Positions 3,618 to 47,742 of a stretch of DNA of 64,000 nt are shown here, one piece after another. The translations under genes and the position numbers were made by a program. Position 1 is the first letter of the stretch. Each line of letters begins with the position of its first letter. The notes under the pieces were generated by a model, which was not told the DNA's origin, did no database searches, and saw only the letters and a list, made by a program, of their open reading frames with translations. Source of the DNA: Flavobacteriaceae bacterium (GTDB taxonomy: Bacteria; Bacteroidota; Bacteroidia; Flavobacteriales; Flavobacteriaceae); contig OZ238267.1 of assembly GCA_965178585.1 (NCBI GenBank), forward strand, positions 2,355,313 through 2,419,312. The letters are read 5' to 3'.

Positions 3618-3820
3618 AGATATCTAAAATTAGAAGCCTTTAATCATAACATAACAACTATCATTAATCTTATTAATTAATAGTTTTTAAAACAACCAAT
3701 AAAAGTTTCAATAAATTGAGAGCTTATTCTTAACAAAACAACTTTTATTTATGATGAAACAAAAATTAAGAATACTTATTAAAACTTAATTATTGATTGC
3801 GATATAAATAAACAAAAGAT

Positions 3821-3880
3821 TATGAACATCAAAGTTAACACCCATAATCACTTATCACTCCCGATTAAAAATTACTCACA
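3821..3880 (+). repeat. Copy A of a ~60-bp intergenic direct repeat (partner at 9191-9250).
   Basis: tatgaaCatcaaagttaacacccataatca aligns with tatgaaTatcaaTagttaacacccataatca with 1 mismatch and 1 indel. The next ~30 nt are about 65% identical. Confidence 0.8.
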
Positions 3881-3888
3881 ATAAAAAA

Positions 3889-3921
3889 GGCCATTTAGAA
3901 TTAATTCTAAATGGCCTTTTT
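3889..3921. terminator. Bidirectional intrinsic terminator.
   Basis: A perfect 28-nt palindrome (ggccatttagaatt/aattctaaatggcc) is flanked by an A-run (3883-3888) and a T-run (3917-3921). It lies between convergent genes. Confidence 0.8.
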
Positions 3922-3946
3922 GGCAGATTAATTTAATTATTATTTA

Positions 3947-4384
3947 TTAATCGTTAGTTTTCAACGCTATATTCATTCTTTGACCAGAAGCTATTTCTGA
4001 AGTTGATTCAAAAGCTAAAACTAAAGGAACATATTCGTTAGTAAGATTAATATTTAACGCTGTAAATACTAATACTCCAGAACGTTCATTTGCTGGTATA
4101 ACAACTGATGCATCAAATGAATAACTCTCAGGAGAAAGTTCAGATTCCTCTTCTACAACTATTACTTGAAATGTTCTTTCAGATGAAGAAGCATTTGAAA
4201 CATAATATGTCAAAGGAAAATTAATCTCAGGATTACTTGCTGATAATGGCAACTCTAAAGTAGCCGCTATTGTGAATCCAATTACATCTTTATGATCAGC
4301 ATTAATATCATCATAATTAGTTGAACAAGATGCTACAACTATTATAGTAAATATTAATGTAACTATTTTATATATTTTTTTCAT
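3947..4384 (-). CDS. Small lipoprotein, third gene of the SusC/SusD locus. Function unknown.
   Basis: It has a lipobox (VVASC) and sits 15 bp downstream of susD in the same orientation. Confidence 0.5.
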   Translation of the reverse strand: MKKIYKIVTLIFTIIVVASCSTNYDDINADHKDVIGFTIAATLELPLSASNPEINFPLTYYVSNASSSERTFQVIVVEEESELSPESYSFDASVVIPANERSGVLVFTALNINLTNEYVPLVLAFESTSEIASGQRMNIALKTND

Positions 4385-4399
4385 ATTTCAAATTTTAAA

Positions 4400-5815
4400 T
4401 TAATAACCTGCATTTTGCTGCAAGTTTGGATTTACATCTAATGATTCTTGAGCAATTGGAAGTTGGAATAAAAGACTTCCAGATTGTAACGTTAGTACAT
4501 CAGAAGGAGTTCCAGAACCATCTGCAATATCTCCAGCAATAGTCCTATTTATAGTAAGCCCCCATCTTTTAAGATCGAAAAAACGTTGGTATTCAAAAGC
4601 AAACTCTAATCTTCTCTCTAGACGTATAGCATCTCTTAAAGCAATACCTGTTTCACCATTAGGAGGTGTAAGGTATCTATTTTCTCTAACCATATTTAAT
4701 GCTGCTCTAGCTGGTATATCATTTCCTAAATTATAATATGCTTCCGCTTTATTTAAATATGCTTCAGCAGCTCGGAAAATCTTATAATCTACTTCACCAT
4801 TAAATACACCAGGTCTACCAAATAGTTTTTTTATACCATTATATTGTGTTCCTCCGTTTGATCCTTCAAATGTATATGCTTCTTTTCTTATATCATCATC
4901 TGCAAATAAATTATATAATTGAAATGAAGTTACATATTCAGGTATTATTGATGTCATAGGCCCTTGACTCCATGTAACACCAATACTATTACCTAGAATT
5001 GGATCTACATTTGGGATATACATAAGTAACCCATCTTGGCTCGTATCTTCCCATACTCCTACTACATTATCTCTAGAAGCTACACTTATAGTAACATCAT
5101 TAGCAGCATTAATAGCATTTTGCCATTGTCCCATATAAAGATAAACTCTAGATAATAAAACATTAACAGCATCTGCTCCCATTCTTCCTACAGGGTTTGA
5201 ATCATTAATTTTAGATTTTGCATCTACTAAATCATCTAATATCAAATTATAAGATTCACCTACAGAAAGCCGTGCTGGCTCAATATTAGGATCTGGTTCT
5301 AAAACATAGGCAACTCCAAGGCTTGAATTAGCATCACTAGATTGTGTTGGAATTTGCCCAAAATAAGTTACTAGGTTAAAATGTGCTAATGCTCTCAAAG
5401 CTTTTGCTTCAGCTATGATATTATCTTTACTTTCACCTTCAAAATTCTGAACATAGTACAAAATTTGATTTGCTCTAAATATAAGTTCGTAAGCATTATT
5501 ATAAGTTCCTAATAACGTTGAATTAGAATTGTACTCATAATCATGTAAAGTTCGTTTTGTAAAACGACCTGCTTGACATAAGGTCACATTATCAGAAAGT
5601 ACGTCTGGGACACTTAATGAAGTATCTCCATATAATCCCCCTAAAGTTAGTGCAGAATAAACTCCACGTATACCGTTTTCAAAATCTTGAGCAGTTACAT
5701 ATGCGTTTTCAGTAGCGAATTCATCATATGGTAACTGATCTAATTCATCTTGACAGGATACAAACAATCCTGTAAAGAAAACTATGATTATTATTATTTT
5801 AAAGTATTTTTTCAT
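4400..5815 (-). CDS. susD: RagB/SusD-family nutrient-binding outer-membrane lipoprotein.
   Basis: It has a lipobox (LFVSC), a TPR-like SusD fold signature and the conserved C-terminal region (RLERRLEFAFEYQRFFDLKRW). It lies directly downstream of susC. Confidence 0.9.
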   Translation of the reverse strand: MKKYFKIIIIIVFFTGLFVSCQDELDQLPYDEFATENAYVTAQDFENGIRGVYSALTLGGLYGDTSLSVPDVLSDNVTLCQAGRFTKRTLHDYEYNSNSTLLGTYNNAYELIFRANQILYYVQNFEGESKDNIIAEAKALRALAHFNLVTYFGQIPTQSSDANSSLGVAYVLEPDPNIEPARLSVGESYNLILDDLVDAKSKINDSNPVGRMGADAVNVLLSRVYLYMGQWQNAINAANDVTISVASRDNVVGVWEDTSQDGLLMYIPNVDPILGNSIGVTWSQGPMTSIIPEYVTSFQLYNLFADDDIRKEAYTFEGSNGGTQYNGIKKLFGRPGVFNGEVDYKIFRAAEAYLNKAEAYYNLGNDIPARAALNMVRENRYLTPPNGETGIALRDAIRLERRLEFAFEYQRFFDLKRWGLTINRTIAGDIADGSGTPSDVLTLQSGSLLFQLPIAQESLDVNPNLQQNAGY

Positions 5816-5832
5816 TTTTCTTATTTTTTTGA

Positions 5833-8800
5833 TTAGAAACTTAAATCTACTCCAAATGAAACAGATTTTGTATTTGGATAACTATATAGAGTTGCCTCTC
5901 CTGGAGCAACGGTACTTGCGAAATTAATGGTTTCACCCGATGAAATACCTACTTCAGGATCTCCATAAAACTCTGTAAAAGTCAATAAATTTTGTCCTTG
6001 AAGATATAGTCTTAGATTAGTAAAAGGTATTCTACTTAACGATTCGCTAGGGAATGTGTAAGAAAAAGTAAGGTTTCTCATTCTAATATAATCACCTTTT
6101 TCTAAGAATCTATCAGAATTTACTGAATTAGCTTCATTTTGATAAATTGGACTTGGCTGTACATCCGTATCTCCTGGGTTTTGCCAATAATTAAAAGCAG
6201 AAATTGCTTGATTATCATCAATATTAATACCATCTGAGTTTAAGTTTGAACGCACAAAGTTGTTAATCCAGTTTCCAGATTTAAAAATAAAATCGGCTCT
6301 TAATCCCCAACCTTTATAAGTTAAATCTGTAAAGAATCCTCCTTCTTTATCTGCTATGGTAGATTTTCCTTGTAAGACTCTATTTTCTCCTTCAGGAAGA
6401 TCATCTGCTCTGTAAACTTCACCGTCAGCTCCATAATACAATGGCGCTCCATTGGATGGATCTACACCAGCATATCGAACTAAATAATGCTCATTAATCA
6501 ATGCTCCTTCTCTAAATAAAATATTAAATGCATTACCAGGAATTACATCTTCACCATCTGGTAATGAAACAATTTCATGATCTAGGAAGAATATGTTTCC
6601 TCCAAGTGTCCATTTCCAATTTTCGTTTCTGATAACGTCTCCTTGTAATGAAAGTTCAAAACCTTTATTTTGAATTTCACCTAAATTTCCAAATACGGAC
6701 CCTACTCCAGATTCACCGGATGCTGGTATAGCAAATAAAAGGTCTGTTGTATTTCTAATAAAATAATCGGCAACACCTCTTAATCTATTATCGAACATAT
6801 TAAATTCTAATCCAAAGTTAGCTGTAGCGGTAGTTTCCCATTTAAGCTCTGGATTTCCAATATTAGATGGGATAGTTGCAGATCCACCAGGATACGAACC
6901 AAAAGCTACATTATCCTGTGCAGCATAACGGGATATACCATCGCGATTACCAACTGTACCATAAGATACTCTTGGCTTTAAAAGATTTATAAAATCTGCA
7001 TTGAAGAAATCTTCTTTAGCTATATTCCAACCTAAACTTCCACTATAAAATAGTCCCCAACGATTATCTTTACCAAAATTTGAAGAACCGTCATAACGAA
7101 CTGATGCTGATGCTAAATATTTTTCTTTAAAATCATAATCTGCAAATAATCCATACGATACTAATGTTAATACATTTTTAGTCGTACTACCTGCTGTAAC
7201 TTGAGCAGCATTACTTTGAGTAGTTAATAATTCTGATGGGAATCCTATACTTCTTACTGAATAGCCATTATTTTCATTATAATTATATTCAAATAATCCC
7301 ATAACATTTAAATTATTCGTGTCTGTTGAAAGATTATAATTTAGTCGATTACTCATAGTCATGTCAAATCGATAAGCTCCTGTATCCAATTTATTACCTG
7401 GATTATTTGGATCTCCAATAAGTGCATCTAATATTCCACCAGGTTTTGAATAACTTTCATTTCTTTGATTTAGACTGTTAATAGAAGTATTAAATCCATA
7501 ACTCCAATTGTCTGAAAACAGTATCTCTGCATCGACACTTGATAATAAGTTATTTTTAATTTCCTCTGCTGGTTCAGATAATAAAGCTCCCCTTACATTA
7601 AATGATGTGTGGGTTGGACTATAAATTGGATCACCATTTTCGTCTAATTCTGGGTTTCCATTTTCATCTAATACAAATTCTGTCTCGTAAGGGTTATAAT
7701 CGTACATTGCTCTAAAAGGATTTTGCACATTATTTCTATCACGAGGTTCGTCACTTGTAGATCTTGAATAACCAACATTTACTCCTAGTTTTAACCAATC
7801 TTTTGCATCAAAATTTAAGTTCAGTCTTGTATTAATTCTTTCAAAACCATCAATTTGATCAATAATTCCTGTATTTCTATCATATCCTACAGAAAAGAAA
7901 TAATCCATTTTTTCTAAACCACCAGAGAATGATAAATTATTATTTTGCACGTAACCTTGCTTTAACATAAGGTCTTGCCAATCAGTTTCATTATCTAATA
8001 GAAATTGTCTTTCTGGGCTTCCGGGTTGAGTTGTAACTCCAGGTAAACTATTCGCAGCAGAAATTCCTAAGGCAGATAATTCTGCTTCATATTGCATTTT
8101 CTGTTGAGCATTCATCACATCGAAATTAGGGTTTATCCTTTCAGTAAAACCAAATCGAGAGCTAAATCTTACCTGAGCGTCCTTATTTCTATCACCAGAT
8201 TTCGTTGTTATAACAACAACACCATTTGCACCTCTTGAACCGTACCTTGAAGTAGTAGCTGCATCTTTAAGTATCGATAAATTTGCAATATCTTGATTAG
8301 ATATAGTTCCTAAATCTTCTTCTCGTACCACTGCTCCATCAACTATATATAATGGTGAAGATGCGCCGGAACTTAATGAACCCACACCTCTAATTCTTAC
8401 AAAGGCTCCTTCTCCAGGCTTACCATTTGCTGCAGTTACTTGTACCCCTGCTGCTTTACCTTGTATTAAATTATCAATACTGGTAGACGGAGCAAGTTGT
8501 GCAATTTCCTCAGCAGAAATAGAAACAACGGCAGAAGTTTGAACAGTTTTGTTCCTTCTTGAATAACCAGTAATTACTACTTCTTCAAGTACTGCTGTAT
8601 CTTCTTGCATTTGAATACTTAAACTTGTCATGTTAGCTAAAACTGTTCGTTCAATAGTTTGATATCCAACAAAACTAAATACAATAATTTTTGTTGCTTC
8701 TACATCTAGACTAAACATTCCGTCAAAATCTGTTTGTGTACCATTAGTTGTGCCTTTTTCAATAATGTTCACTCCCATTAGAACTTCACCTGAAGTATCT

Positions 8801-43330: not shown

Positions 43331-44704
43331 TTATTGTTTTTTAAAATTAAAATAATAATTAATACCTATACCAAAATTATAATATTGATCATCTCTTTTT
43401 CCATTAACTAGATAATCTACATCATCACTAAAAACAAAGTCGTATTCAGCAAAAGCCTTTAATCCCCATCGTTTTGAAATAAAATACAATACTCCTGCAC
43501 CTATTTGAGCTTTAAAAAAAGTGTCATTATTACCTTCATTTGAATTTCTATATATCGCTCCTGGTCCAAAATAAACATATGGTGAGACTTCATCATTAGG
43601 CAATATATTAAAGCTACCATTTAAATCTACTCCTATAAATGATTCATTGAATACTTCACCATTATTAAGTTTAAAATAGGAGCCTGAAATCCCTACTTTA
43701 AACGAAGGTGTTATTTTTCTTTGATATTGCAGGCTAGTAAAGTAATCCCAATTAGATTGAGTATAATCACCCATTATTTGTCCAATAGCACCAGTTGCAT
43801 TTAAACTATTCTTAAACTCTCTGGTAACAAATTTTCTATCATACAATTCTGTATTCTCATCTTCTTCTTTAATTCTTAAATATTCTGCAACCATTTCTTT
43901 ATCCTTTTCAGCTCCTTCTGCAGTTCCCCAATATTGATCTTTAACACCTTCAATTATAAGGTCATGAACTGCTTTTTCTATCGCATCTTTCACTGCTAAT
44001 TGCATCGGCTCATTTTGCGTAATTCCCATTTCAACCTCTAATAATCTTTGAAATTTCACAAAACGGAATAAACTAGCATCAAGCGCTTGAGATAAAATTG
44101 TTTTTGAAACATAAACGGTTTTCAAAATTTGTCCATTGCTTGTTGAGACTGCACGCAAATAAACAGTTATTCTATCTTGTCTATATTGAGTAGAGCCTCC
44201 AATTCCAAAATATCTAGCTCCAACACCGCCAGTTATTATATTGGTATCGTATGAAATAATTCCACCCTCTAGTAATAAACCAGCATAAAGTAATGGTGGT
44301 AATGGTGGTTCATTTGGATTTAAATTTTTAATATATTCTTGTTTTGTATTTCTAATAATATTTCGTTCTGTAGAAAGGTTACTTAAATTTTCCCTTTCAA
44401 TGGGTATAAACCAGCCAGAATCTTCTAATGCCTTAATTAATATGGTAGTTGCTCCTTGTGACACAGCAGTACTAAAGGTACTACCATTTTCAACAGCCTT
44501 ATATTGTCCAGTTTGATCACTAAAATTATAAACAGCAACTTCAACTGGGCTTTGTGCTTTAGGTAAATCTAATAGTATTTTTGTTGACGGGGCTAACTCA
44601 CCAGTTTGAGAAGGCTTTTGTTTAATAGGCTGGTTAAACATTCCAGCACAAGAGCCTAAAATCAATATAGGAATAACTAATAATAATTTGTAAAATATCT
44701 GCAT
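43331..44704 (-). CDS. csgG: CsgG-like curli secretion channel lipoprotein fused to a C-terminal OMP beta-barrel domain.
   Basis: It has a lipobox (ILGSC). Residues ~45-285 align with E. coli CsgG (VAVYNFSDQTGQYK, STFSTAVSQGATTILIKALEDSGWFIPIERENLSNLSTERNIIR, GGVGARYFGIG, FRFVKFQRLLE). An extra ~170 aa has alternating beta-strand patterns ending GIGINYYF. Confidence 0.8.
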   Translation of the reverse strand: MQIFYKLLLVIPILILGSCAGMFNQPIKQKPSQTGELAPSTKILLDLPKAQSPVEVAVYNFSDQTGQYKAVENGSTFSTAVSQGATTILIKALEDSGWFIPIERENLSNLSTERNIIRNTKQEYIKNLNPNEPPLPPLLYAGLLLEGGIISYDTNIITGGVGARYFGIGGSTQYRQDRITVYLRAVSTSNGQILKTVYVSKTILSQALDASLFRFVKFQRLLEVEMGITQNEPMQLAVKDAIEKAVHDLIIEGVKDQYWGTAEGAEKDKEMVAEYLRIKEEDENTELYDRKFVTREFKNSLNATGAIGQIMGDYTQSNWDYFTSLQYQRKITPSFKVGISGSYFKLNNGEVFNESFIGVDLNGSFNILPNDEVSPYVYFGPGAIYRNSNEGNNDTFFKAQIGAGVLYFISKRWGLKAFAEYDFVFSDDVDYLVNGKRDDQYYNFGIGINYYFNFKKQ

Positions 44705-44713
44705 GATTTTTTT

Positions 44714-45118
44714 TTAATTTGGAACAATTATTTGAGTTTGTTCTCCATTTGAAGTATCTAAAATATTAATAATTAACCCTTCACCTGTTTCTGTAATTTC
44801 AATGTTTAAGGATCCATAAACAAAAGAACCTTCTTGGGTAAAATCAAAATCACCTAGTTGTTGTTCTAACAATGCTCTGGAAATTTGACTCAATATCTGG
44901 CTGTTAATATTTTCTCCAAATCGATCTAGGTCTGTTTCTTCTTCTCTTGCATCACGATCTGCAGTAAAAGAGTTTTGTGCAGTTGCAGAGCTTAGTAGCC
45001 AGTTATAATTAAATGTGTTTCCTCCAAAAGCAGGGTTTTTAGGTTGATAACTAAATTGTTGAGCATAACAACTTGAACCAAAAATAAATATCACTGCTAT
45101 AAAAAATATCTTTTTCAT
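44714..45118 (-). CDS. csgF: CsgF-like curli assembly component.
   Basis: A signal peptide is followed by FSYQPKNPAFGGNTFNYNWLLSSATAQNSF, which matches the E. coli CsgF N-terminus [27 protein letters not shown]. Confidence 0.75.
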   Translation of the reverse strand: MKKIFFIAVIFIFGSSCYAQQFSYQPKNPAFGGNTFNYNWLLSSATAQNSFTADRDAREEETDLDRFGENINSQILSQISRALLEQQLGDFDFTQEGSFVYGSLNIEITETGEGLIINILDTSNGEQTQIIVPN

Positions 45119-45119
45119 C

Positions 45120-45530
45120 TTAATAATGTATAAAATTATCTTTTTGTTTTTCTATTTGTTGAAGCTTTGCTATTGAGCGATACAAAGCAGTACTTGCCAT
45201 TTTTTTTAAAAAATCTTTTCTAGGTTGAGCAAAAAACTGCCATACTAATTGATTATCTACTTTTACAGAAATTTTAGAGCTACGCACACTAAAACCCGCT
45301 AGCACTTCTTCTACTAAAATATTTTTATCTGTTTTTATTTGTTTATTTCTATACTCTGTATAAAAATACCTATAAAAATCTCGTCCGACTTTAGTTATCG
45401 TGTTTTCTATAACTAAGCCATTTATTTCATACCCATCTTGAGGTTTTGATTGATCAGATTCTACAATTCTTATGGTTTCGGGATTATATAATGCAAAAAG
45501 TCGTTCAACTACAGTTAAACGACCTTTTAT
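45120..45530 (-). CDS. csgE: CsgE-like protein. The start is unresolved and it may be a 5'-truncated pseudogene.
   Basis: The open frame IKGRL...INGLVIENTITKVGRDFYRYF...ISVKVDNQLVWQFFAQPRKDFLKK aligns with E. coli CsgE (GHDFYRAF...[24 protein letters not shown]). No ATG, GTG or TTG occurs before the GTG at 45305, and no signal peptide is encoded. Confidence 0.55.
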   Translation of the reverse strand: MKGRLTVVERLFALYNPETIRIVESDQSKPQDGYEINGLVIENTITKVGRDFYRYFYTEYRNKQIKTDKNILVEEVLAGFSVRSSKISVKVDNQLVWQFFAQPRKDFLKKMASTALYRSIAKLQQIEKQKDNFIHY

Positions 45531-45555: not shown

Positions 45556-47742
45556 TTATTTCAGCATAATCATTTCACGATATTTTGAAAGTGGCCAAAG
45601 TTCATCATCAACTAACAATTCTAATTTGTCACAATGATATCTAATCTCATCAAAATAAGGCTTAACCTTGTTACAGTAAGCTGTAGCGCGTTTTTCTGCT
45701 GAACTAATCTTATTAGCTTTTTTACGTTCATCAATCATATCGGTAATTCCTAAATTAATTTTTTCAATATGTTCAGATATTTTTTCAATTAACTTCAATT
45801 GCTCTTTTGACAGTTTTTTAAAGCCACTGCCATAAATATCCTTTAATCCTTGAACATTTTTAATCAACCTATTTTGATATTTAATAGCTGTAGGAATTAC
45901 ATGGTTTCTTGCAATATCACCCAATACTCTTCCTTCAATTTGAATACGCATCGTATACTCTTCCACTTTAATTTCATATCGAGCTTCTATTTCTACTCTA
46001 CTCATGATATTAAGCTCTTCATATAAAGCAATTGTTTTTTCAGCAACTTTTGCTTTTAAAGCTTCTGGAGTACTTTTATTGTTACTAAGTCCTCTCTTTT
46101 TTGCTTCTTTTTCCCAAGCTTCACCGTAACCATCCCCTTCAAATCGAATACGTTTAGAGTCTTTAACATACTCTCTTAGAATATTAAATATAGCATCGTC
46201 TTTTTTCATTTTCTTTTCTTCAATCAAAGAATCCACACTTTTCTTAAATTCAATTAACTGTTTTGCAACAATAGAATTTAAAACGGTCATGGGTGTTGCA
46301 CAATTTGCTGTTGATCCTACTGCTCTAAATTCAAATTTATTTCCAGTAAAAGCAAAAGGTGAAGTTCTATTACGATCTGTATTATCTAACAAAATCTCAG
46401 GGATTTTCCCTACAACATTTAGCTTAAGGTCGGTCTTTTCTTCTGGAGATAATTTTCCGTTGGTAACTTTCTCTAATTCATCTAAAGCTTTAGTAAGTTG
46501 AGAACCTATAAATACTGAAATAATTGCAGGTGGAGCTTCATTAGCACCTAAACGATGATCGTTATTAGCACTTGCAATAGATGAACGCATTAATTCTTCA
46601 TAATCATTAACTGCTTTTATAGTATTTACAAAGAAGGTTAAAAACTGAAGGTTGCGTTTTGGAGTTTTACTAGGACTTAATAAATTAATTCCAGTATTAG
46701 TGCTTAATGACCAGTTATTATGCTTACCGCTTCCATTAATTCCTTTAAATGGTTTTTCATGAAACAACACTTTAAAGTGATGTCTTTCAGCAACTTTTTC
46801 CATAATATCCATTAATAAGGAATTATGATCTACTGCTAAGTTTGCTTCTTCAAAAATAGGTGCCAACTCAAACTGATTGGGCGCCACCTCATTATGACGT
46901 GTTTTAACTGGAATACCTAATAACATACATTCAGTTTCTAAATCACGCATATAATCCAATGCTCTTGTAGGAATGGATCCAAAGTAATGATCATCTAATT
47001 GCTGTCCTTTTGCTACTTCATGACCTAAAAGGGTTCTTCCAGTTAAGGTAATGTCTGGTCTTGATGCAGCTAAAGCTTTATCAACTAAAAAATACTCTTG
47101 TTCCCAACCCAATGTTGCAATTGTTTTTGTTACATTTTTATCAAAATATTTTGCTACTGAAGTTGCTGCATTATCTAATACTTGAAGAGATCTTAATAAT
47201 GGCGTTTTATTGTCTAAAGCCTCGCCTGTATAAGAAACAAATACTGTTGGAATACAAAGTGTAGTACCATAAATAAAAGCTGGAGAAGTTGGGTCCCAAG
47301 CAGTATATCCTCTTGCTTCAAAAGTATTCCTAATTCCTCCATTTGGAAAACTTGAAGCATCTGGTTCTTGCTGTACTAATTGTCCACCTCCAAACTTTTC
47401 GATTGCACTTCCGTCACTAGTTGTTTCAAAAAAAGCATCATGCTTTTCAGCAGTAGATCCTGTTAAAGGTTGAAACCAGTGTGTATAGTGAGTAGCTCCA
47501 TTGTTGATAGCCCATTCTTTCATTCCTGTTGAAATATGATCGGCTATATTTCGGTTAATTTTTGAACCATTAATAGTGGCATCAACTACACTATTATAAG
47601 ATTCTTTTGTTAAATACTGACGCATTGCTGCCTCATTAAAAACGTTTTTACCAAAAATAGTAGAACGTCTAGCTGGCTCTTCTACTGAGATTGGTTTTCT
47701 ACTTAATGTTTCTTTGATTGCTTCAAATCTAAGGGTAGACAT
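45556..47742 (-). CDS. glnA: Glutamine synthetase type III (GlnN).
   Basis: It is 728 aa with the Bacteroidota GSIII N-terminus (FGKNVFNEAAMRQYLTKE) and catalytic motifs (NGSGKHNNWS, HNEVAPNQFE). Confidence 0.92.
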   Translation of the reverse strand: MSTLRFEAIKETLSRKPISVEEPARRSTIFGKNVFNEAAMRQYLTKESYNSVVDATINGSKINRNIADHISTGMKEWAINNGATHYTHWFQPLTGSTAEKHDAFFETTSDGSAIEKFGGGQLVQQEPDASSFPNGGIRNTFEARGYTAWDPTSPAFIYGTTLCIPTVFVSYTGEALDNKTPLLRSLQVLDNAATSVAKYFDKNVTKTIATLGWEQEYFLVDKALAASRPDITLTGRTLLGHEVAKGQQLDDHYFGSIPTRALDYMRDLETECMLLGIPVKTRHNEVAPNQFELAPIFEEANLAVDHNSLLMDIMEKVAERHHFKVLFHEKPFKGINGSGKHNNWSLSTNTGINLLSPSKTPKRNLQFLTFFVNTIKAVNDYEELMRSSIASANNDHRLGANEAPPAIISVFIGSQLTKALDELEKVTNGKLSPEEKTDLKLNVVGKIPEILLDNTDRNRTSPFAFTGNKFEFRAVGSTANCATPMTVLNSIVAKQLIEFKKSVDSLIEEKKMKKDDAIFNILREYVKDSKRIRFEGDGYGEAWEKEAKKRGLSNNKSTPEALKAKVAEKTIALYEELNIMSRVEIEARYEIKVEEYTMRIQIEGRVLGDIARNHVIPTAIKYQNRLIKNVQGLKDIYGSGFKKLSKEQLKLIEKISEHIEKINLGITDMIDERKKANKISSAEKRATAYCNKVKPYFDEIRYHCDKLELLVDDELWPLSKYREMIMLK

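Follow-up and report, generated by a model that had tools for sequence, protein, structure and literature searches.

The window, a stretch of 64,000 nucleotides from a Flavobacteriaceae genome, contains a curli locus whose csgG gene lies between csgF and the gene of a lipoprotein (Table 1). CsgG is among the best-studied outer-membrane channels and provides the pore of commercial nanopore sequencing. To our knowledge, all structural and mechanistic work on CsgG rests on the enterobacterial form. The first-pass annotation had proposed that the protein encoded here is a CsgG channel to which a small outer-membrane barrel is fused, and this proposal was borne out by profile searches, structure prediction and fold searches. 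The gene, annotated csgG::barrel, encodes the only CsgG of the complete genome.

The N-terminal part of the protein belongs to the CsgG family. According to Pfam, PF03783 (CsgG) matched residues 48-260 with 223.1 bits (cut-off 20.8, E 3.2e-66). In phmmer searches, residues 6-279 aligned with residues 3-272 of the 285-residue CsgG chain of PDB entries 6lqh, 3x2r and 4uv3 (E 2.5e-63). The homology had initially been taken to end at DQYWG, near residue 260, but it continues through the C-terminal helix to residue 279. When a model of the whole protein was compared with the PDB using Foldseek, the top matches were CsgG structures (4uv2, 4uv3 and 6si7), followed by OmpA, NspA and Ail. The NCBIfam equivalog model NF011731 scored 230 bits, under its strict cut-off of 505, and the window CsgG therefore does not rank as an NCBI equivalog of enterobacterial CsgG.

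Compared with the CsgG of E. coli and Salmonella (PDB 4uv3, 6si7, 6l7a and 7brm), the window protein has 42-46% identity over the aligned part, which covers E. coli CsgG in full with its C-terminal helix, and the same lipobox and cysteine. The aromatic residue of the constriction loop, equivalent to F56 of E. coli CsgG, is kept, whereas the constriction residues Y51 and N55 are replaced by V and T, respectively. The lipobox cysteine, Cys19, was invariant in an alignment of fused homologues (39/39 sequences), and none of 74 CsgG homologues had an acidic residue at positions +2 to +5 after it. The lipid anchor is therefore expected on the periplasmic side. As in E. coli and Salmonella, csgE and csgF are adjacent; the operon differs from that of E. 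coli in having an extra lipoprotein gene and in lacking csgC and csgD.

The principal difference from E. coli CsgG is a C-terminal extension of ∼178 residues, comprising a spacer of fixed length and a predicted eight-stranded β-barrel. The extension had been put at ∼170 residues; it is real, and 154 of its residues lie in the barrel. PF13505 (OMP_b-brl) matched residues 302-452 of the whole protein with 25.8 bits, just below the cut-off of 28.7, and matched the C-terminal 174 residues alone with 29.8 bits, just above it. A full-length AlphaFold2 model, built from an alignment of 39 fused homologues, placed strands at residues 299-311, 318-330, 335-347, 353-366, 373-387, 395-408, 413-424 and 440-452, with predicted local distance difference test (pLDDT) scores of 84-97 in the barrel block. 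Modelled alone with a different alignment that included stand-alone relatives, the barrel had the same eight strands, a pLDDT of 90.9 and a predicted template modelling (TM) score of 0.84. The monomer is thus predicted with high confidence to carry an eight-stranded barrel, and six peptides quoted as barrel strands in the first-pass annotation all map to strands β3 to β8 of the model. Hydrophobic and polar faces alternate in β4 to β8. The last of these peptides, the proposed terminal strand YNFGIGINYYF, is not the very end of the protein, as NFKKQ follows it. The strand ends in F452, a position occupied by F in 64 of 88 aligned fused proteins and by L, I, V or Y in 23 more.

In Foldseek searches of the PDB, the barrel matched only small outer-membrane barrels, namely the OmpA transmembrane domain, NspA, Ail, the OprF N-terminal domain, OmpX, OmpW and PagL. 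The match to NspA had TM scores of 0.71/0.79 and a root-mean-square deviation (RMSD) of 3.2 Å. Overall, TM scores normalised to target length were 0.63-0.79 for OmpA, NspA and the OprF N-terminal domain and 0.54-0.61 for Ail and OmpX, with RMSDs of 3.2-6.1 Å over ∼160-180 columns and sequence identities of 12-18%. The window barrel shares amphipathic strands, an aromatic terminal strand and a weak PF13505 match with these small barrels. The extension is accordingly predicted to have an OmpA/OmpX/NspA-class fold, yet it is neither OmpA nor PorG. PF00691, the peptidoglycan-binding C-terminal domain of OmpA, had no match in the whole protein, which ends five residues past the barrel; unlike these small barrels, the barrel is not free-standing but forms the C-terminal part of a channel subunit that is a lipoprotein. 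The model of PorG, which belongs to the T9SS (type IX secretion system), scored 25.1 bits against a cut-off of 130 (NF052316, residues 370-445 only, E 1.3e-5).

In E. coli structures, the C-terminus of CsgG is periplasmic and peripheral, and the ends of eight-stranded barrels are also periplasmic. The barrel would therefore begin and finish in the periplasm, so that the loops at residues 312-317, 348-352, 388-394 and 425-439 would lie outside the cell. Three of these four predicted extracellular loops are very short, a difference from the small barrels of known structure; the fourth is the acidic β7-β8 loop, SDDVDYLVNGKRDD. Within the barrel, conservation is highest in this loop: among the 88 sequences, D427, G435 and D439 were invariant and D430 and R437 were at least 85% conserved.

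Table 1. Features of the curli locus, in window coordinates.
Feature	Position	Strand	Details
Operon lipoprotein gene, 506 aa	41798..43318	-	CarboxypepD_reg, fn3 and TolB-like propeller; C-SEDT start (Pfam, NCBIfam)
csgG::barrel gene	43331..44704	-	457 aa + stop codon (open reading frame list)
Short tail NFKKQ after last strand	43334..43348	-	tail of 0-65 residues among homologues
Predicted eight-stranded outer-membrane β-barrel, residues 299-452	43349..43810	-	AlphaFold, Foldseek, PF13505
Conserved acidic β7-β8 loop, residues 425-439	43388..43432	-	predicted extracellular loop 4, by topology
Helical, charged spacer from pore domain to barrel, residues 265-298	43811..43912	-	AlphaFold helix 265-284
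CsgG-homologous part, residues 6-279 (whole E. coli CsgG, including C-terminal helix)	43868..44689	-	phmmer, Pfam, Foldseek
Signal peptide and lipobox (LGSC, Cys19)	44648..44704	-	Cys19 invariant in alignment
csgF, 134 aa, intact	44714..45118	-	PF10614, E 1.2e-35; present in 79/79 related loci
csgE remnant, C-terminal CsgE domain only, open frame of 136 aa	45120..45530	-	PF10627 profile 1-93, E 5.5e-19
Deletion junction, 13 nt	45470..45482	.	common to contigs arriving from both sides
glnA	45556..47742		terminator hairpin abuts csgE remnant

Sequence change has been much faster in the barrel than in the pore. In the alignment of 88 fused proteins, the median identity to the window protein was 75% for the pore domain (residues 40-262), 36% for the spacer (263-298) and 36% for the barrel (299-452). 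The distance from the near-invariant W259 to D313 was 53 residues in 80 of the 88 sequences, with a range of 52-56. Such constancy of length in a spacer of drifting sequence suggests that the barrel has to occupy a set position with respect to the pore and is not loosely tethered. The spacer carries a conserved motif, L287-Y288-x-R290. Further conserved positions are G312-D313, L368-P369, P375, G380, G382, K398, Q400, G402, G404, Y407 and G447, in addition to the loop residues given above. In a Nei-Gojobori comparison with L015, the locus of an 80%-identical relative, the core, the spacer and the barrel had ratios of nonsynonymous to synonymous substitutions (dN/dS) of 0.05, 0.06 and 0.15, respectively, at a dS of ∼1.4, which is close to saturation. 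These ratios point to purifying selection on the barrel that is looser than that on the pore.

A search of 1.84 billion representative sequences with residues 262-457 found only 153 proteins. These comprised fused CsgGs and fragments thereof, stand-alone proteins of ∼210-235 aa with a signal peptide, and a few barrels fused to an OmpA C-terminal domain or to tetratricopeptide repeats. Both R290 and the acidic β7-β8 loop also occur in stand-alone barrel proteins that have no CsgG part, and are thus features of the barrel family, not of the CsgG fusion in particular. The genome of the window itself encodes one weak stand-alone paralogue of the barrel, a 208-residue protein with a signal peptide (L095:1468-2094; G000:C1, ∼2722608-2723120) that matched the barrel profile with an E value of 6.8e-8. 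Its neighbourhood, with genes for a dTDP-glucose dehydratase and a glucose-1-phosphate thymidylyltransferase, gave no functional hint.

The fusion is widespread in Bacteroidota. A protein search yielded 4816 relatives, of which the best 120 were examined: all were 433-479 aa long and had 60-89% identity over 93-100% of the query. When one genome per species was scanned, at least 598 stretches were confirmed. The best 79 loci, which were analysed further, were all from Flavobacteriaceae, among them Aequorivita, Dokdonia, Salegentibacter, Aquimarina, Olleya, Lacinutrix, Leeuwenhoekiella and other genera, and in 79/79 residues 1 to ∼455 lay in one frame. In a sample of 401 genomes spread evenly over the phylum, PF03783 had a match in 133. 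Among the strong matches, defined as those above 185 bits, 24 were in open reading frames of 455-552 aa from at least ten families; these were all the strong matches outside the Chlorobium family that were uncut by a contig end. All eight long-frame curli loci that were fetched, from seven families including that of the window, had the order csgE-csgF-csgG::barrel. Every curli-type CsgG of Bacteroidota that was sampled, that is, every one with csgE and csgF adjacent, carries the barrel. Exact look-ups located fused forms in Hymenobacter, Algoriphagus, Flavobacterium and a metagenome-assembled genome of Balneolia, and the representative of another cluster was from Sphingobacterium. The nearest clusters of the ESM Atlas were from Bacteroidota only, with no fused form from another phylum, although that library cannot prove that the fused form is absent elsewhere. 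The co-occurrence of PF03783 and PF13505 is already on record in databases, and many homologues of the fused CsgG have a precomputed PF13505 match. In the papers searched or read, among them Dueholm et al. 2012, Sleutel 2023, reviews of 2025-26 and a paper on the β-barrel assembly machinery of Bacteroidota, we did not find a C-terminal barrel of CsgG described; according to Dueholm et al. 2012 (PMC3521004), the size of CsgG does not vary across taxa.

The phylum sample also contained ∼24 strong matches of only 219-285 aa, nearly all from one family. These short PF03783 proteins were initially read as unfused CsgG, a reading that was rejected: they are CsgG/LpoB-like paralogues of Chlorobium. 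The four that were fetched had no lipobox cysteine and no csgE or csgF neighbours, and in BLAST searches they had no similarity to the CsgG domain of the window. The Chlorobium loci (L010-L013; genomes G125, G097, G257 and G165) encode proteins of 240-270 aa that score >200 bits on the Pfam CsgG profile, and some databases name these CsgG-like proteins LpoB. Surveys by profile only could easily miscount them as curli CsgG.

Within Bacteroidota, two other systems resemble the fused channel in part. In the T9SS, the eight-stranded barrel PorG holds the PorK lipoprotein ring at the outer membrane via a disulfide (PMC12365241). In both cases, a lipoprotein ring beneath the outer membrane would be tied covalently to small eight-stranded barrels; by contrast, PorG and PorK are two gene products that a disulfide joins at low stoichiometry, whereas the tie in the window protein is a peptide bond at 1:1. 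Moreover, PorKN is itself no membrane pore, unlike CsgG. The second system is TamL, described as a lipidated, TamA-like barrel of Bacteroidota (preprint 10.1101/2024.10.17.618404). TamL likewise combines an N-terminal lipid anchor and a barrel of the type inserted by the β-barrel assembly machinery (BAM) in one polypeptide, but it has a 16-stranded Omp85 barrel, an unrelated function and no sequence relation to the window protein. The existence of TamL shows that the phylum makes proteins anchored by both a lipid and a barrel.

The lipoprotein gene adjoins csgG::barrel in 73 of the 79 Flavobacteriaceae loci and in 8/8 loci from other families, in which the lipoprotein shares the N-terminal domain (CarboxypepD_reg) only. 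In 88% of its homologues, the mature protein starts with C-S-E-D/E and has at least two acidic residues at positions +2 to +5. In Bacteroidota, the signal for lipoprotein export is made up of a polar residue and, after it, two acidic residues (PMC5080379). The C-SEDT start of the window protein fits this signal, and the operon lipoprotein is therefore probably surface-exposed. A predicted complex of the barrel with lipoprotein residues 22-215 scored 0.00, which gives no verdict and carries no weight either way.

Upstream of csgF, the locus of this strain is incomplete. The gene order in relatives is glnA, csgA (one to three copies), csgB, csgE (240-275 aa), csgF, csgG::barrel, the gene of a ∼500-aa lipoprotein and purM, gaps in the table of gene orders being due to contig ends. 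In the window, csgE is a remnant that has neither a signal peptide nor a usable start before 45305 and that aligns with residues 148-265 of the CsgE of L015. More specifically, window positions 45900-45495 correspond to L015 2914-3319 and positions 45459-44713 to L015 6251-6997. This gap in the alignment indicates that ∼2.9 kb is missing, comprising csgA, csgB and ∼150 5′ codons of csgE. The upstream promoter region of csgA, csgB and csgE is also gone, and Curlin_rpt had no match across the complete 3.18-Mb genome. The Logan contig obtained from the source run crosses the junction and shows no difference there, so the deposited assembly is not in error about the deletion. In two marine metagenome studies, contigs that are mostly 99% alike diverge from the window at 45470 and 45482. 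Past 45482, the loose end reads GEQLEIETST in the csgE frame, resembling GDQLEVEV of the L015 CsgE. It appears from these contigs that near-identical wild marine strains still have the locus in its undeleted form, and the loss looks strain-specific and recent. Judging from the contig ends only, the deletion seems to have microhomology at its ends, namely the shared 13 nt (minus strand, CCCGAAACCATAA).

We propose, with a probability of roughly 0.55, that the curli (type VIII) channel of Bacteroidota carries a BAM-inserted barrel that acts as a second anchor and as an assembly handle, giving a ring of nine barrels. In this model, the N-terminal lipid anchor and the CsgG domain (residues 1-279) would build a nonameric, 36-stranded pore, as in E. 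coli. The helical spacer of fixed length would lead, on the periplasmic side, into the OmpA/NspA-like barrel of residues 299-452. The barrel would be delivered to BAM by its own terminal strand, which resembles a β-signal, and BAM would insert it into the outer membrane beside the pore. There it would serve as a protein anchor holding each CsgG protomer in addition to the lipid, and as a handle for assembly; the mature nonamer would be ringed by nine small barrels at a set distance. We infer the insertion by BAM, the nonameric stoichiometry, the geometry of the ring and the anchoring role. From standard barrel dimensions, the centres of the barrels were estimated to lie at a radius of 42-50 Å, leaving an arc of 30-35 Å per protomer for a barrel ∼25 Å wide. 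Nine barrels would thus fit and nearly close the ring. Such an arrangement is plausible on geometric grounds and agrees with the constant spacer of 53 residues. The PorK-PorG tie and TamL are precedents for the model within the phylum. A BAM-type domain on the CsgG of Bacteroidota would also mean that its assembly route differs from that of E. coli.

Several observations weigh against this model. The placement of the barrel by the pore is a deduction, and the transmembrane hairpins of CsgG are of low confidence in the monomer model. The fast evolution of the barrel fits a scaffold but would also fit a less important role. E. coli CsgG is reported to need neither BamA nor TamA for its assembly (Dunstan et al. 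2015); as proteobacterial CsgG works without a barrel and without BamA/TamA, the CsgG fold as such does not need the barrel. Finally, R290 and the acidic loop, being common to stand-alone barrels, may reflect the folding of the barrel family.

The alternatives differ widely in probability. It is hardly credible that the extension is an artefact, in which a sequencing or assembly error joined csgG to a separate gene downstream, or a misread fold, in which it is a soluble periplasmic β domain. Although the PF13505 score of the whole protein falls below the Pfam cut-off, the frame is unbroken in all 79 independent genomes and in all 120 of the best-listed protein matches, and the stretch has the identical sequence in an independent assembly of the source run. 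This conservation of the fused frame excludes the merged-gene error that the first-pass annotation had raised. The confident eight-stranded model matches outer-membrane barrels only, and the stand-alone relatives, with their signal peptides and, in some, OmpA C-terminal domains, look like outer-membrane proteins. A different function, in which the acidic loop at residues 425-439 holds the operon lipoprotein or the outer part of CsgF/CsgB at the cell surface and anchoring is secondary, appears unlikely to us. Every curli locus of Bacteroidota that was examined does encode both the barrel and a CarboxypepD_reg lipoprotein, and E. coli, the sole proteobacterial system compared, has no barrel on CsgG; co-occurrence within one phylum, however, amounts to a single evolutionary event, not a repeated association. 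The export-signal-like start, found in 88% of the lipoprotein homologues and never in CsgG, and the conservation of the β7-β8 loop are also in line with such docking, but stand-alone relatives, which lack a CsgG part, keep the loop motif too, and contact between the lipoprotein and the barrel is itself a conjecture. It would be still bolder to suppose a composite machine, in which nine barrels form a near-closed palisade, assembly of the pore depends on BAM, and the acidic loops couple the pore to a surface lipoprotein that handles the emerging fibre; this seems to us quite improbable.

The anchoring model concerns the channel in Bacteroidota at large, and the chances are evenly balanced that in this strain the gene is an idle relic: the deletion of csgA, csgB and a working csgE would leave the channel nothing to export and its gene awaiting decay. 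The absence of a Curlin_rpt match from the complete genome is consistent with such a relic, as is the 2.9-kb deletion, which is evident both against the 80%-identical L015 and against the synteny of the 79 loci. The csgE remnant lacks a start codon and a signal peptide, the promoter region of csgA/B/E is gone, and the terminator hairpin of glnA lies against the remnant. On the other hand, three genes, csgF, csgG::barrel and that of the lipoprotein, remain intact and free of stops, and the channel could export another substrate. The deletion may be so recent that this intactness says little either way.

The window is thus a damaged example of a moderately interesting architecture. With its fibre genes deleted, the strain is a poor model of curli formation, yet it constitutes a natural 'channel without substrate' control. 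The fusion raises the questions of whether a hybrid of a lipoprotein and a barrel is targeted by the lipoprotein localization (Lol) pathway, by BAM or by both, and of how oligomeric pores are positioned and stabilised in the outer membrane of Bacteroidota. It may also be asked whether the extra barrel and the extra surface lipoprotein together make up a new layer of the curli machine.

Two further observations were made on curli genes of relatives. E. coli CsgE has ∼130 aa in total. The 240-275-aa CsgE proteins of Flavobacteriaceae (e.g., L014:7583-8314 and L015:5793-6590) have ∼130-150 extra N-terminal residues before the Pfam CsgE domain. In addition, the genome of RhTr2 (Flavobacteriaceae) contains an apparent second set of csgA/csgB/csgE-like genes downstream of its first curli locus (L068:10436-14433 and 3653-5844).

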